A stretch of DNA of 64,000 nt from Vermamoeba vermiformis (Eukaryota): the NCBI GenBank assembly GCA_045837725.1, contig JBEWZL010000211.1, positions 1 to 64,000 of the forward strand. Reading direction: 5' to 3'. A program made the position numbers and the translations under genes. Shown here one piece after another: positions 18,101 to 46,794 of the stretch. The notes beneath the pieces were generated by a model. That model was not told the DNA's origin and made no database searches. It saw only the letters and a list, made by a program, of their open reading frames with translations. The stretch's first letter is position 1; each line of letters begins with the position of its first letter.

Positions 18101-21100
18101 TCGTTGTGCTATCGGTAGTGTTAAAGGCTACGACGCAATTTACCCGCAACGCATCGATTTGGTCAATGAAGCTAAGCTCTATCCTACTGACAGCATTGAA
18201 AAGCCTTTGCAAAACGAAGGTGTTTATTTCCCGCGCAAAATCTTGAACACGTTGCACAAGTAAGTGGCCGAATGAATGTCAGTAATTTTTCATATTAGCT
18301 AATATTTTTTATAGGAAACTCGAGGAAGAAGGATACACCGAGATTCACGTGCATCAAGAAGAGAACGTAATCACCGTGCAGCGACATAATCCGTCCAATC
18401 ACAAAGCAGTCTATGCTATCTGCCATACCGCGTTTTACGGCGGTGGAAACAATTTTGGCGAAACACCGAAATTCACCGTCAAAATCCCACACAAGGTCAC
18501 TAAACTGCTCTTCGCTGCTCAGATTGACGTAGAGATTTCGTTACGAGTAAGCGATAATAATCATAAAAAAGTACTTCGTACACAAGACCAAAGCAAAGCC
18601 TAACACTTGGACAGGCTGAAACTTCGGACCATTTGCAAGGCATTGCTTCAAAGTGCCGCATGATTGTTGACAGCGACGACTACTCGTCAGTGTTGACACT
18701 CAGAGAGTGCAATGACGGCTTGGCTAAATCATTTGAGGTCCACTTTAACAACTTCCACCCTGGTGCTGTCGTGTTTTTCGAAGCCACTCTCCACGGTAGG
18801 TTATCACCGTTCGTGAGTAAAGTTCGTCTAACGTATTGTCCTTGCAGACGATGAATCCCGTGCCTCAGAGGTGTTGTCAGGATTAAAGCACGATCACAGC
18901 TTGTTTGATCATTTCAAGGCCCTAGACTGCTTGGACTTCAATTACTTGTTGTACAGATGTGAAGACGAGGAACGGTACGTCATTAGTATATCCCTTATCG
19001 TGGCACGTGATTTATTGTAGTTGTTTCAGATCTGTGGATGGTAACTCCGGCGTGTATAATATACCCGAATATGGACCACTTGTGTTTGCTGGAATTCAAG
19101 GTTTTGTCTCAGTCCTGCAAACTATTCGCCTTAATAATGACATGGGCCACCAACTGTTCAATAATTTGCGTGCTGGTAATTGGGCCATGGATTACATTCT
19201 TTACCGCATTGAGCGACAGATGCGTGTCAGCGAATCCGAGAAAAACAAATGGACTGGCTTGTATAATTGGCTCAAGGGCTATTTCGAAGCCGTAAGTAAC
19301 ATTAATATATAGTAACCTTATAATTGAATCCTTTGTAAAGGCAAAGAAAATGCCGCGCTACTTGGTGCCAAAGTCGTTCGATCGGATCTTGATGAAGCTT
19401 TACCTCTCAGCTATTGAATATATTACTCGCGTATTGATGGTGCCGTCAGCCATGACTACGACACGGTATTCTTTCTTTCAACAGCTTCTGTTAACCTCCG
19501 TTCAGTTAGTCGCAAGTATGCCAAACAGCTGGGTTATTCATCCTAAACTCCTCTCGGTAAGTTATTATGCCTAAATAATACGCCTTCATATTTTGTGAGC
19601 ACGAAGAGAAAAGTTGGAAATTTTTCTATTGGTTCTGGTACGAAGCTACCATAATTTTCCTTGCGCAAATTTTGCTGCCTCTTCATAGGGATGAACGCGC
19701 GTGGCAGAGACTTGAGAAAGTGCTCTGTATTCGTGCTTCATCTTTTCTTTCGCCAAGTGGGTTGAAGAGGATTCTGATGGATATCCTATCATAATACTTC
19801 GATTTATGACCAGGGCTGCGGATCGTGGCCTGGAGTCATTTGTCACAGGTTGCACGCTACGCAATCACTTTCTTTTTTACTTTTGACACTCACCTATAAC
19901 TACTCGACTCAACTTTTCCTTTTTAGGAAGGAGAATACAAAGCTGCGATGGCCGCTGGTTTGCCGCACTTTAGCACGGGTTACATGCGCGTGTGGGGCCG
20001 TGACACTTTTATTTCATTGAACGGCTTGTTGATCCGTCCTGGAAGATATAAGGTACGAGTATAATAATCGTAAAAAGCATTCAGAGTCATAGCTCTAATG
20101 TTCGGTTTCATAGGACGCGCAAGATCTGATCTTAGGTTTTGGATCTTCAATGAGACACGGACTTATTCCTAACTTGTTGGATCAAGGATGGAATCCAAGG
20201 TAGTCCCTTCTATTAATATATCCAAGTAATCTAACCCGTGTTCTATTTTTAGATACAACTGCCGCGATGCTGTTTGGTGGTGGTTAGCTTCGATTCAGGA
20301 TTATTGCACCCACGCACCTGAAGGCGTTGAATTCTTAAAAACATCATTATGTCGATTGTTCCCATGGGACGACTATGATAGCCCTAATACTCCTTCAACG
20401 CACAAAGTCACTTTAGTGGATCTGATCCAGGAGGCAATGCAGCGACACGCAGCTGGTATCTACTTCAGAGAACGAAATGCCGGCCAAAAAATTGATAGCA
20501 AGATGACTGATGAAGGCTTTAATGTGTCTGTATCGTTGGATTATGAAACCGGATTCATTTCTGGTGGCAACAAAATGAACTGCGGCACGTGGATGGACAA
20601 GATGGGTGACTCGCAGAAGGCTGGAAACTTCGGATTGCCTGCTACATCAAGGTAAGATCATTTACTATACAAAACAAACTACTTTACACGCATTCTTGCG
20701 TTTTTCTCGAATTGAAATGCCGGATCCGATCTGATCCTATGCTTGGGCGACCTTAAAATATGTGGCGCCTTGTCTTTTTGACGACCTCGTATGATCCGAG
20801 ACAGTTTTTTCAACTCAAGGCGCTATAGCTTAGTGGTAGAGCACTGGTCTCATAAGTCGGTTGTCTTGGTTCGATTCCAAGTAGCGCCTAATTTCAATTT
20901 CTTTTTTGCTCTTTTAACTTGCGGTAACAACTTACATTCCATAGCTTTGAATATGACTTCGAATATTCGCAATTACGGCTTAAGTTGAGTGGATGTGACT
21001 AACTTATTTTTTCCTTTAGAGACGGAGCTGATGTTGAAATTATTGGCTTGTTGAAGTACACGGTGCGCTGGTTATCAGAGCTATCGGCCAGCAATCCTGC

Positions 21101-22177
21101 TTTGTTCCCGCACAAAGGCGTCAAGATCACGGTCAATCATGGTACGTCGCGTACTGGATCTTGTTTTTGCTTTAAAACGATTTACTTATGCTTGAAATAT
21201 AGAAAATCGGTTCTTGAGCTATGAAGAATGGAATAAGAAGCTTCAAGCGAACTTTGAGAAGTATTTCTACATCCCGTTGAACTCGATCGACGATGTGCAC
21301 CACGTAATCGACAAGAACACTGTGAATAGAAGAGGCATATACAAAGATGTATATGGATCGAATGACAGTTGGCACGACTATCAATTCAGGCCTAATCAAT
21401 GCGTGGCTATGGCTTTGGCTCCCGAGCTGTTCAATCCGGATCATGCTCGTACCGCACTGCATCTGATTGAGAATAACTTGTTGGGACCATTAGGCATGAA
21501 GACCTTGGACCCTAGTGATATGCGCTACAGACCTAATTACGACAATGGCGCTGATACTGAGGACTTTTTGACCAGCAAAGGATTTAATTACCATCAAGGC
21601 CCAGTACGTACTCTTAAATAGTATTATATGATAGGTGAAGGTAAATACTAACATATTAATATGAATAGGAATGGTTATGGCCCGTTGGCTACTTCTTGAA
21701 GGCTAAAATCCAATTCGCGGAAGAAAAAGTCAGATCTGACTTAGCCAATCATATTTGGTCAATTCTAAAGCCTCATCGAACAGCTATCGATCAGTCCTAT
21801 TGGTGCGGATTGCCCGGTAAGTCTTCTTCACCTTTCAGATCCGGATTTAAAGTCTTTACGTCCCACAAATAACTAACAGCTCATTCATGGGCCGCTATTT
21901 CTTTTCATTTATTCTAGAATTACATTGGGTGGAAAGTACAGGTGGGGTGCATCTCGGAGTGTCGAGTTGCCACCGCGTGGTCGCTTTCCATCCACTTTTT
22001 TTTGCTACATCCGGTTATAATTTTATTTATGTACAATACTGACGTATTTAATACTAAATAGAATTGACCAACTACCACGGCAGTTTCTGCAGAGATTCGT
22101 GTCCTTCGCAAGCTTGGTCCACTGGCACTATTATTGACGCGATTTTTGACTTGCATGCGCTCATGAAACAAAAATAG
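15129..22177 (+). CDS. AGL: Glycogen debranching enzyme (4-alpha-glucanotransferase/amylo-1,6-glucosidase), many exons
   Basis: [131 protein letters not shown] and QAWS. Confidence 0.96.
19705..19878 (+). ncRNA. Candidate structured ncRNA inside AGL intron 19557..19926
   Basis: A series of hairpins with G-U pairs valid on the + strand (19705-19727 with a GAGA loop, 19764-19800, 19807-19838), a possible closing helix 19757-19764/19862-19868, then TTTCTTTTTT. The family was not recognised. Confidence 0.4.
20765..20908 (+). repeat. ~145-bp tRNA-containing cassette, copy 1 (in AGL intron 20652..21019)
   Basis: Identical to 44912..45056 except for one T indel and one T/C substitution. It comprises a 54-bp leader, the tRNA and a T-rich trailer. 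Confidence 0.95.
20819..20889 (+). tRNA. tRNA-like gene, anticodon CAT (Met by anticodon; atypical body)
   Basis: Cloverleaf: acceptor GGCGCTA/TAGCGCC, D-arm GCTT-AGTGGTA-GAGC, anticodon arm CTGGT-CTCATAA-GTCGG (three G-U pairs), T-arm CTTGG-TTCGATT-CCAAG, followed by a downstream T6. Confidence 0.8.
21861..21868 (+). promoter_or_regulatory. DUSE/USE-like upstream element TCCCACAA
   Basis: Matches the Dictyostelium DUSE consensus WCCCAYAA and ends about 60 nt upstream of the hairpin at 21927, the spacing known for DUSE-driven small RNAs. Confidence 0.5.
21927..22003 (+). ncRNA. Candidate 67-nt Pol III-type panhandle RNA inside the last AGL intron (21817..22061)
   Basis: Terminal helix GGGTGGAAAG/CTTTCCATCC (10 bp, one G-U on +), inner GGTGG/CCACC and CTCG/CGAG, followed by T8 at 21996-22003. 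It is a GC-rich island in an AT-rich intron. Confidence 0.55.
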
Positions 22178-44404: not shown

Positions 44405-46794
44405 TTAGTTGCGCATCCAAGCCTCGATATCTTCGACTTTTCTGGGCACATCAGTCATATTTTCAACGCCATTAGCAGTAATAATAACATCGCTTTCAAT
44501 TCTGACGCCACCAAACTCGTGGAAGCGATCCAACTTCTCTTTGACGATAAATTGCGACAAGTTCGCGTTATTGTACAGCTCGTGCAACAAGGGCTTAATG
44601 AAGTAAACGCCAGGCTCGACAGTGATGACCATGCCTTCCGCCAACACGCGACCACATCTCAATCTAACGAGTAGGTGCTCCGTTAGTATAATGCATATGA
44701 TACTAGTATTATATATTTACGTACTTGTTGAGACCAGGCTCCTTGCTACGAGTTTGACCGCCAGGATAGCCACCGACATCGTGAGTATCCAGACCCAAAA
44801 AGTGACCCAGACCGTGAGGCATGAAGTACGAGGCTAATGCATACAATGTCTATTAGAACTTGATTGACAATAATAAGCATGATAATTAAGACTAGTAGCA
44901 GTCCACTAGCAGCGCCTTTGTCTTTTTGACGACCTCGTATGATCCGAGACAGTTTTTTCAACTCAAGGCGCTATAGCTTAGTGGTAGAGCACCGGTCTCA
45001 TAAGTCGGTTGTCTTGGTTCGATTCCAAGTAGCGCCTAATTTCAATTTCTTTTTTGATTTTTGGTTTTCGTTGCACACAAACAAGCTGCTAAAACTTTCT
45101 GCTATTTTTCGCAGATTCGAAACGCAAAATTATTATTGCTTACCGAGATTAGCTTCAACCATCTTCTCAACATCGCCCTTCAAGAATCCAAAGCGCGTGA
45201 GCTCGGTTAAAATGACGCGTTCTTTGATACAATGTCAGATCCACATTTTTTGCTAGCGAAATGGTTCACATACCAGCCAATCTGTGCATCGAAGGCCAAC
45301 TAACACCAGGCTTAGCAGCAGCTATAACAGCATCGTGAGCTGCCAACACGGTTTCGTAGACCTCGCGTTGATCTTGCGTGAACTTTCCATTAGCAGGGAA
45401 GCAGACGGTAATATCAGAGGCGTAGCAATGATACTCAACACCCATATCAAACAACAACATATCACCGTCCTTAACGACCTAAATGAAGTCTTGTTAGTAC
45501 GTACAGCCGCAAAAAAAATATCGTGCAACGTACTCTCTTGTTGGGAGCACCGGCGTGGCCGTAATGCAAAACAGCGCCGTTAGGACCACTGCAGCAGATG
45601 CAAGTGTAGGAAGGGTTACGGCAACCACCTAGTCTATCGTTAGAGACGAATACTAATGTTGACTTAACTCGTCGAACATACCCTTCGAGTAGCTCTCGTG
45701 CAAGAACAAACTCTCCATTTGATACTCAGTGACGCCTGGCTTCATGGCCTTAATAACTGCACGGTGAGCATTGCTATAGAAATATGTTAGAACGAGAGAA
45801 ATAGCCGTGCTGGTGGTACGTACCTGCTGACTTTGGCAGCGTATCTCATAACCTCTAATTCTTCAGGAGTCTTAATCACTCTCAACTCGACGATTTCGGG
45901 GAATAACAAGGTCTCGTCGGTCTTGAACTGTTCGATGCCGTTGAACTTAGCAGGGACAGCTTCATTGCCTAGAGTAGTGAATGGAAGTGAGCAGATCGCA
46001 CGCGCTTGATACGCATTTTATATGCTTACCGCTATCAGTATTAAGACCCTTAAGAGTAAGAATCAATTGAACGTTGTTATCTAAAGGAATATTAGAGTTG
46101 GAATTTAGGAAACAGATCTAGGCACGCACCAGTCAAGTACTGAGAGATCTCGTCTGTGTAATAGGCCTCGTCGACTTCGTAGTGCTTAACATAGTATGAT
46201 GGAGGATAAATCTACGATAATGGTATTAATAACTGCTTAGAGGTGCTTCACCAAGCTCGTACTTCACCCATCCAGATTGCGTATGACTCGGGCAAACGAG
46301 GAATGAACAGGACTGATTTATTTCTGCATAATATTAATTTAATTAATTGCACGATAATTATCAATATAAGTGTTAATAGGTTACCTGGTAATGTCAATCA
46401 AACCATAGAAACCTGGTTCGCAAACTCCAAATGCCCATTGAAAGTAGCTTTCTTGACGGAACAAAACCTCGTGGTCAGTGTCGTACTATAATAATCAATA
46501 CATAATTATTATTAATTTCTAAAAGATACCAGAAACGTAACGTGCAAATCCAAACCAAATAATCTCAAAAATCCAATTTAGCTGATAAATTAATTTTAAA
46601 ATTTATATTATAATATTTACCAGTGTCTGAGCTTCGCCTCCTTGCAAAAGAATAACAGATTTAGGCAGCTCCTTAGCTTGGAATTTTTCAATCAATCTAA
46701 CACGATTCTTCGCGTGCAAAGACATAGGCACTTTGAGCGTGTTTTGACCTTGCCAAAAATAGGCCTTTCCAGTTTGAGGATCAATGTACGACAT
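44405..46794 (-). CDS. PEPD: Xaa-Pro dipeptidase (prolidase, peptidase M24B)
   Basis: [69 protein letters not shown] and GGVRIESD. Confidence 0.95.
44912..45056 (+). repeat. ~145-bp tRNA-containing cassette, copy 2 (antisense inside PEPD intron 44834..45143)
   Basis: Near-identical to 20765..20908. Confidence 0.95.
44967..45037 (+). tRNA. tRNA-like gene, anticodon CAT (second copy)
   Basis: Same cloverleaf as 20819..20889. The anticodon stem is CCGGT/GTCGG, where the T/C difference converts a U-G pair to C-G. Confidence 0.8.

Follow-up and report, generated by a model that had tools for sequence, protein, structure and literature searches.

The last intron of AGL contains a predicted small RNA gene

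We analysed a stretch of 64,000 nucleotides (nt) of Vermamoeba vermiformis DNA (contig JBEWZL010000211.1, positions 1 to 64,000 of the forward strand; referred to here as the window), in which a candidate small RNA gene lies within the last intron of AGL. The AGL exons upstream of this intron match Pfam GDE_C (glycogen debranching enzyme). The penultimate coding exon (21669..21816, +; translation EWLWPVGY...WCGLP) is covered by reads or contigs from four runs, and the last exon (22062..22177, +), supported by its translation and by reads and contigs, terminates in TAG at 22175-22177. The intron between them (21817..22061, +) begins with GTAAGT, the GT being at 21817, and ends with AATAG, the AG being at 22061; it is 245 nt long, compared with 65 nt for its upstream neighbour. 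Contigs from two public runs (X1 and X2) contain splice joints that skip 245 and 249 nt at this position. The last AGL intron is genuine, and the element is nested in it on the same strand.

The initial annotation of this DNA had singled out the motif TCCCACAA at 21861-21868, a terminal helix in which GGGTGGAAAG (21927-21936) is complementary to CTTTCCATCC (21984-21993), inner stems, and a run of eight T residues (T8) at 21996-22003, all of which were located at these window coordinates by sequence inspection. The predicted RNA body (21927..21995, +) is an unbranched panhandle of 69 nt before the U tail, and its presumed start is the top promoter-scored position described below. The 5′ arm (21927..21937, +; pair probabilities 0.95-1.0) and the 3′ arm (21983..21993, +; fold and pair probabilities) form a terminal helix of 11 base pairs (bp), inside which inner stems and an apical hairpin (GUGG/CCGC, GCA/UGC and CUCG/CGAG) occupy 21942..21976 (+; pair probabilities 0.89-1.0). 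Both inner complementarities proposed earlier, GGTGG/CCACC and CTCG/CGAG, are found in the hairpin, and CTCG/CGAG is retained in the fold; the ensemble, however, favours the register GUGG(16-19)/CCGC(47-50), with pair probabilities of 0.93-0.96, over GGUGG/CCACC, which complementarity alone would still allow.

On the + strand the 84 nt around the hairpin fold with -37.2 kcal/mol (z -5.35), and none of 200 shuffles was equally stable, whereas the - strand of the region gave -24.4 kcal/mol (z -2.95). Of all folds spanning at most 75 nt on the two window strands, that of the 67-nt panhandle is the most stable, with the next at -30.4. About 50 of its 67 nt are paired, and the rod has some 26 pairs; the 11 terminal pairs are the longest unbroken run, and the remainder is interrupted by bulges. 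The RNA has a GC content of 61% within an AT-rich intron. The T8 run (21996..22003, +; context AC-T8-GCT) is a predicted terminator for RNA polymerase III (Pol III). It does not follow the helix immediately, as had been proposed, but begins 2 nt (AC) after the helix end, and the AC-Tn-GCT context is common to the window RNA and three of four U6 genes of the genome. Among the 12 runs of eight or more T residues in the window, it is the only one with WCCCAHA 100-160 nt upstream.

The predicted gene has a U6-type promoter

The upstream element TCCCACAA (21861..21868, +), which resembles the Dictyostelium upstream sequence element (DUSE) and the proximal sequence element (PSE), starts 66 nt before the first G, rather than the about 60 nt originally given, and scores 12.4 bits in the motif model. 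A TATA-like box, GCTATTTC (21894..21901, +), weak when taken alone, occupies the position of GCTATAAC in two U6 genes. The predicted start is a G that follows CATT in the window RNA, where the U6 genes have AATT and then G. By itself the 8-mer WCCCAYAA is at chance level in the window (4 matches against 5.9 expected). In the genome, 43.3 Mb in 309 contigs, WCCCRHA was found 65-67 nt upstream of four U6 genes, three U6 variant genes, two U2 variant genes and the tRNA-Sec gene, that is, all seven U6 matches, the two of four variant U2 genes that were fetched, and the single tRNA-Sec over the cut-off. These ten genes also carry a TATA-like box near -30 and end in a T-run.

A promoter weight-matrix model combining motif, TATA-like box and start was trained on the ten genes, with the candidate excluded. 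Position 21927 (+) scored 21.2 bits, of which the start component contributed 4.6 and the TATA component 4.2 bits, and ranked first among 127,830 window positions, the next scoring 16.5; leave-one-out scores of the training genes spanned 11.8-28.1 bits, a range that includes the window RNA. This top position coincides exactly with the base at which pairing begins in the strongest hairpin of the window; promoter, helix start and terminator agree to the base. The features of a type-3 Pol III gene are found together: the element spacing, a TATA-like box about 30 nt upstream, a purine start and an oligo-T terminator. We consider it very probable that the window element is a real Pol III gene. The earlier proposal of an independent small RNA gene of an unrecognised class with a DUSE-like promoter is thus supported, at the level of prediction, by the promoter rank and by the lack of an Rfam family.

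The expectation that the snRNA (small nuclear RNA) genes of this genome would use the same upstream element held for U6 and for the U6 and U2 variants but failed for canonical U2. Since it is missing from all three canonical U2 genes, the DUSE-like motif appears, from these gene sequences, to mark Pol III-type genes rather than all snRNA genes; the canonical U2 genes terminate in an A-rich box. In Dictyostelium, genes of Pol II as well as of Pol III use the DUSE (PMC7919456), which lies about 63 bp upstream (PMC3188802).

Several observations were made on the genes used for comparison. The canonical U2 genes (L120-L122) have an upstream block of their own in common (ACCACAACAAATTT...CAGAT) in addition to the A-rich 3′ box. 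Four divergent 219-nt U2-like genes (56-57 bits) were detected, L123, L124 and two more on G000:C49 and C202; the fetched pair, L123 and L124, has U6-type promoters and T-run ends, unlike the three canonical genes, and the divergent genes are possibly Pol III-made variant snRNAs. Three divergent U6 genes, L006, L007 and L008 (G000:C289, C163 and C123), score 75-79 bits compared with 114.6 and have the same promoter type, but carry a different 5′ stem and an additional hairpin ahead of the T-run. A single clear tRNA-Sec gene, L164 (G000:C184:169283-169369, -), has ACCCACAA at -67, and its presence makes selenocysteine decoding likely in this organism.

The location of the element within an intron is usual for a Pol III gene in this genome, since a tRNA-Met gene sits in another AGL intron of the window and the 96-nt gene described below lies in an intron of NELF-A. 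The tRNA-Met gene has a near-identical partner (20819-20889 and 44967-45037, both +), the two having about 55 nt upstream and 18 nt downstream in common; the pair is a recent duplication, with the first copy in an AGL intron of about 370 nt.

Genome searches for copies and for further promoter loci

The pattern of promoter plus T-run gave 40 matches in the genome, compared with 22 in a reversed control; 30 were fetched and 26 distinct loci were folded. Among these the window RNA was the only stable GC-rich hairpin, with a folding energy of -0.53 kcal/mol per nt compared with -0.26 for the next locus. A promoter-only survey gave 39 matches, compared with 17 in the control, and examination of all 39 recovered five U6-type genes, the window RNA and a second orphan RNA, the 96-nt gene at L159. 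The U6-type promoter is a signal sharp enough to list orphan RNA genes in this genome. These searches for motif-plus-panhandle loci, of the kind suggested in the initial annotation, did not reveal a second copy of the window RNA; none was detected by the sequence-based searches, either by DNA search or by a 21-nt pattern allowing three mismatches. Covariance models of the window RNA and of the L159 RNA matched nothing beyond their own source sequences.

Comparison of 17 promoter loci with Rfam gave no credible family. At L128, from about 1568 (+) (G000:C43:67399 onward), a promoter-pattern match precedes 315 nt of structured sequence before the first T-run; this locus, for which Rfam gave no match, is a possible further Pol III RNA. 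The sequence after the promoter-pattern match at L160 (G000:C300:128170 onward) is GC-rich and matches the bacterial large-subunit rRNA model with 27.7 bits and a low E-value, below gathering. Finally, G000:C309 (L162, L163, L168 and L169) is a 91-kb contig on which clusters of tRNAs recur in inverted orientation, in the manner of either an organellar genome containing a large inverted repeat or a duplication made in assembly.

The orthologous intron of a relative

A scan of metagenomes yielded 30 AGL loci, one of which, L086, is close: its adjacent AGL exon is 92% identical to that of the window. Of 22 other loci inspected, 17 continue directly into the codons of the next exon and five were uninformative, and scans of prokaryote genomes and viral sequences gave no useful ortholog. 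The orthologous intron in L086 is enlarged too, 197 nt compared with about 59 nt for its neighbour. It contains ACCCTCAA, which differs from the motif at one position and lies 65 nt upstream of a G-initiated hairpin of 46 nt (z -2.86; 3 of 200 shuffles); T5 and then T8-GCT, the latter as in the window, come after the hairpin. Aligned over their full length, the introns show a weak likeness (7 of 1000 mononucleotide shuffles did as well, T-runs included), and the promoter alignment that includes the motif was equalled by 33 of 1000 shuffles. By eye, GGAAAG/CTTTCC of the window corresponds to GGAATG/CATTC of L086, which is a possible compensatory change. The two introns thus have a layout in common but not a sequence, reflecting either fast evolution or decay in the relative.

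The L086 sequence gave no credible family in Rfam, and its intron used as a query found no match in the genome. A further copy of TCCCACAA follows closely on the AGL stop in L086 and precedes a small hairpin by about 66 nt (L086:814-900, +; z -2.5); the motif is absent from the corresponding site of the window, and the copy is probably due to chance. A viral-bin locus, L044 (IMG/VR giant-virus bin), contains the C-terminal region of AGL, 53% identical and intronless over the stretch read, and represents either host contamination or a captured gene. A stem-arm pattern matched 40 stretches in viral contigs, none of which was followed by a T-run like that of the window.

A 96-nt RNA gene is a candidate for the vault RNA

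The source organism is, as judged from its genes, a tubulinean amoebozoan and not a dictyostelid, because one of its two MVP proteins shares 97% identity with the representative of a cluster in which a protein named as Vermamoeba vermiformis occurs; further named members noticed in this cluster are from Echinamoeba and Arcella. In addition to the two MVP genes, the genome encodes one TROVE gene with TROVE-DUF5920-DUF4062 domains, an arrangement that is TEP1-like. DUF4062 has been linked to TEP1 in a 2026 preprint, and Dictyostelium vaults associate with a TEP1 orthologue (PMC13100048). A vault RNA is therefore expected in this genome, although the presence of MVP and TEP1 is a necessary and not a specific indication of one.

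Vault RNAs have been described as Pol III panhandles with little sequence conservation that can be multi-copy, validated in vertebrates, sea urchin and T. brucei (PMC7058938), with further examples in other trypanosomatids (PMC9326685), and structure is considered the best route to those of other lineages (PMC3762200). Vault RNA is thus already known outside animals. In the open literature searched, with subscription papers and bioRxiv supplements outside the scope, there is no report of the window RNA, of the L159 RNA or of any amoebozoan vault RNA, and the accessible parts of PMC7916137, PMC10491885, PMC7904556, PMC11940608 and bioRxiv 10.64898/2026.10.07.757187 contain nothing against that absence.

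The second orphan gene, L159:176-271 (+), corresponds to G000:C276:213425-213520 and is also present at L178:2926-3021. It specifies a 96-nt panhandle (fold z -2.16) ending in T8, with TCCCACAA at -67 and a promoter score of 13.3 bits, and reading frames and GT-AG ends indicate that it lies in the last intron of a putative NELF-A gene. Comparison by eye with the T. brucei vault RNA (TBsRNA-10; sequence from Fig. S10 of PMC12547018) showed an exact 13-mer, AGCAAAGGGGCGT, and an exact 10-mer, CTTCTGCATA, in common, in swapped order, together with identity at 8 of the first 10 bases and a possible terminal helix of five pairs. The chance of finding both exact words in L159 is 2e-6 to 1e-4 by composition and 8e-5 to 5e-3 over 39 loci, and each word occurs only at this locus within the 496 kb of sequence searched. 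These figures should be read with the caveats that U6, too, contains a match to a 10-nt word of the T. brucei vault RNA, a single short word therefore proving little, that the lowest-energy fold of L159 pairs the 5′ end in another register (-31.4 compared with -28.6), and that the case rests on one amoebozoan copy. The L159 RNA, like the window RNA, has no Rfam match, so the vault model RF00006 may miss protist members. We think that the 96-nt RNA is probably the vault RNA ortholog of the amoeba.

There is partial complementarity between the two words, which could pair into a single helix, closed at one end in T. brucei and at the other end in the amoeba. Bases 3-12 of the T. brucei vault RNA are, by eye, identical to a 10-nt stretch of the U6 genes L002-L005, and the 13-mer can pair weakly with U6; either may be due to chance. 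Knock-down of the T. brucei vault RNA reportedly affects trans-splicing.

Patterns built from the vault words gave 0, 0 and 34 matches in viral contigs, and none of the 34 had an upstream motif or the second word.

The window RNA and its alternative explanations

We propose that the last AGL intron hosts, in the orientation of AGL, a self-contained type-3 (U6-type) Pol III gene. Recruited by the upstream element together with the TATA-like box, Pol III would initiate at G21927 and terminate within T8, giving an RNA of roughly 72 nt whose ends are held together by the 11-bp helix and which carries a short U tail. Going by what is established about Pol III, such a transcript would be expected to start with a 5′ triphosphate, to end in oligo-U, to bind La and to be made independently of AGL splicing. 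By its anatomy it would be a rod-shaped, protein-binding RNA that serves as a scaffold or decoy, like Class I, Y and vault RNAs; a protein-binding rod seems the most likely form because most of the panhandle is paired and no guide stretch is exposed. We lean towards the view that it is an orphan, lineage-restricted, fast-evolving Pol III panhandle RNA of this kind and not the main vault RNA.

Several results weigh against this proposal. No read or contig covered 21864-22045 in the 4 runs analysed of 23 listed, but these were of low depth, came from other strains or species and included none described as a small-RNA library, so that this gap speaks neither for nor against expression; two of the four gave just 25 and 15 reads, mostly less than 95% alike and thus from another strain or species. 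Exons were covered and introns removed. The layout of the promoter model was chosen after the likeness to U6 had been noticed, making the rank somewhat favourable, even though the candidate was outside the training set. The L086 promoter scored just 7.2 bits, which 418 of 127,830 window positions reach, and the promoter alignment without the motif was not significant (142 of 300 shuffles). The conservation that had been looked for in orthologous introns extends to the layout but not to the hairpin bodies, whose likeness fell short of significance with each of four scoring schemes (84-121 of 500 shuffles), and the covariance model of the window RNA fails to find the L086 element. One relative cannot show covariation, and the L086 element may be a relic.

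The last of these points bears on the idea that the window gene is itself decaying or silent, its promoter and hairpin being remnants of a once-active Pol III gene that has decayed further in the relative. The weak promoter and shorter, dissimilar hairpin of L086, the lack of reads, and the several odd U6 and U2 variants with the same promoter type, which suggest that this promoter is easily spread, are all consistent with it. Decay would, however, be expected to erode the parts that are intact together in the window, namely the 21.2-bit promoter, the 11 unbroken pairs from the predicted start, the high GC content and T8, and we consider this explanation improbable. That the hairpin acts in the AGL pre-mRNA, on splicing or 3′-end formation, with no gene involved, might be suggested by its position on the sense strand of the intron and by the presence of a hairpin in the L086 intron as well; a structure of this kind would leave the top-ranked promoter aligned to the first paired base and the U6-like terminator unexplained, and since the joints in two runs show plain intron removal, we regard it as very improbable. 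A rod that has no branches, about 26 pairs and a U overhang at its 3′ end could also be a Pol III-made short hairpin precursor that Dicer cuts into a small regulatory RNA. MicroRNAs (miRNAs) have been reported in Amoebozoa (PMC11014262), and the lone weak Rfam match of the 96-nt window sequence is to an miRNA family, at chance level (12.8 bits, E 5.8, gathering 100). The longest unbroken helix is only 11 bp, the rest being bulged, and neither arm is conserved in L086; the precursor role has little probability.

The initial annotation had noted a presumed resemblance between the 3′ end of the window RNA and animal vault RNAs. The UCGAG and CCGCGUGG words on which it was based are missing from the L086 intron, RF00006 gave no match to the window RNA (96 nt, E up to 10) or genome-wide (48 of 2503 candidates scored), and the 96-nt gene matches the T. 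brucei vault RNA far better, so the vault identity of the window RNA is weakened and we do not maintain it in its original form. A second, divergent vault-type RNA, whose terminal helix would bind the TEP1 TROVE domain and which would be carried or stabilised by vaults alongside the 96-nt RNA, is possible but unlikely. It would be in keeping with the two MVP genes and the TEP1-like gene, and with vault RNAs being poorly conserved and in some cases multi-copy (PMC7058938). The first 10 nt of the window RNA match the start common to L159 and the T. brucei vault RNA at 8 of 10 positions, the second best of the 39 promoter matches, but 62 of 25,713 G-starts in the window match this start equally well, and the first-ten identity is 7 to L159 itself compared with 6 to two U6 variants. 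An 11-nt word of the window RNA differs by one mismatch, by eye, from the T. brucei vault RNA, with a chance expectation of 0.06-0.37. Against a vault-type RNA, the window RNA has five mismatches to each of the words common to L159 and T. brucei, compared with none in L159, and single-sequence models of the two RNAs do not find each other, though the lack of an Rfam Vault match applies to L159 too. The best box B has four mismatches (consensus from PMC5054030), and the best box A three in the 11-nt form or two in the 12-nt form, the latter at +8 (21934..21945, +) in a weak stretch with four mismatches at that place to the published 11-nt form; a fit with two mismatches turns up somewhere in the RNA in 638 of 2000 shuffles. 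The terminal helix is unbroken, unlike the bulged helix by which the trypanosome vault RNA is recognised, and 67-69 nt is below the usual range of 84-140 nt (both PMC9326685).

Sequence comparisons favour the 96-nt gene at G000:C276:213425-213520 as the more likely main vault RNA, in place of the window RNA. That the amoeba has two vault-type RNAs, the 96-nt RNA and the 67-nt rod of the window, both with U6-type promoters and both in last introns, is doubtful. If it were true, Amoebozoa would gain their first vault RNAs, as far as the literature searched shows, the rod would be shorter than those described in reviews, and the TEP1-binding core would be older than the split between Amoebozoa and Discoba. 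The probable amoebozoan vault RNA at L159, a by-product of this work, is a more testable result than the window RNA, and its two short searchable words make the question of an amoebozoan or ancestral vault RNA directly testable. For Dictyostelium, vault genetics, in situ structures and a TEP1 are available, while the vault RNAs that the reviews list as validated come from vertebrates, sea urchin and trypanosomatids. The orphan panhandle RNA that we favour for the window element, if expressed, would be a small Pol III RNA without an Rfam family and would extend the DUSE-driven panhandle design beyond the social amoebae; the literature searched contains no papers on non-coding RNA of Vermamoeba.

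Comparison with known RNA classes

The Rfam comparison that had been recommended at the outset gave no credible family for the RNA, whether the window was scanned at gathering or stretches of 900 and 96 nt were scanned with E-values as high as 10. Assignment to C/D or H/ACA small nucleolar RNAs, spliceosomal snRNAs or the signal recognition particle RNA was rejected in the absence of Rfam matches, and no C/D boxes were seen in the sequence; an ACA after the T-run of the window is not kept in L086. A tRNA or tRNA-Sec derivative was also rejected, ARAGORN being negative and no anticodon arm or T-loop being found; short words resembling tRNA-Sec, -Leu and -Ser were noticed by eye, but similarity to these and to tRNA-Met was not significant (among several tests, the smallest number of shuffles scoring as well was 23 of 1000). 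An antisense guide was not supported, as there was no excess pairing with eight other non-coding RNAs of the genome (rRNA being outside this set). Reading the T-run as an Sm site was discarded, since this context is also found at the ends of the U6 genes, and canonical U2 has a promoter and 3′ box of a different kind.

Y RNAs are of similar size, are transcribed by Pol III from upstream promoters, and have paired ends, a U tail and a bulged helix that binds Ro. The window RNA resembles them in size, upstream-promoter design, paired ends and U tail, but its terminal helix has no bulge, it has no Rfam match, and the TROVE search gave just the TEP1-like gene and no separate Ro60; a Y RNA was rejected on these grounds. 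Compared with vault RNA (RF00006; T. brucei TBsRNA-10), it is likewise a Pol III-type panhandle with paired ends, a U tail and similar first ten bases, but it is shorter and differs in having an unbroken terminal helix, a poor box B, no Rfam match and neither of the loop words.

The dictyostelid Class I RNAs are described as multi-copy, intergenic RNAs with 32-41% GC and an 11-nt motif beside a short stem (PMC7919456), and as not found outside Dictyostelia (PMC7919456, PMC3188802). As had been noted in the initial annotation, the motif is lacking from the window RNA: there are six mismatches at its place, and 1988 of 2000 shuffles are as good. The window RNA is also intronic and single-copy by two sequence searches, its GC content is 61%, and its stem is 11 bp compared with 5-6 bp, so that it was not assigned to this class. 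It nevertheless has in common with Class I RNAs a DUSE about 60 nt upstream, a 5′ G, a stem closing the 5′ and 3′ ends, a downstream T-run and a similar size (Class I RNAs being 42-65 nt), and in Class I RNAs, too, the stem is kept across species by structure and not by sequence (PMC7919456, PMC3188802). The transcript has no Rfam U6 match and no significant similarity to tRNA-Sec, but the gene resembles the U6 and tRNA-Sec genes of its own genome in the upstream motif at -65 to -67, the TATA-like box, the start context and the T-run terminator.

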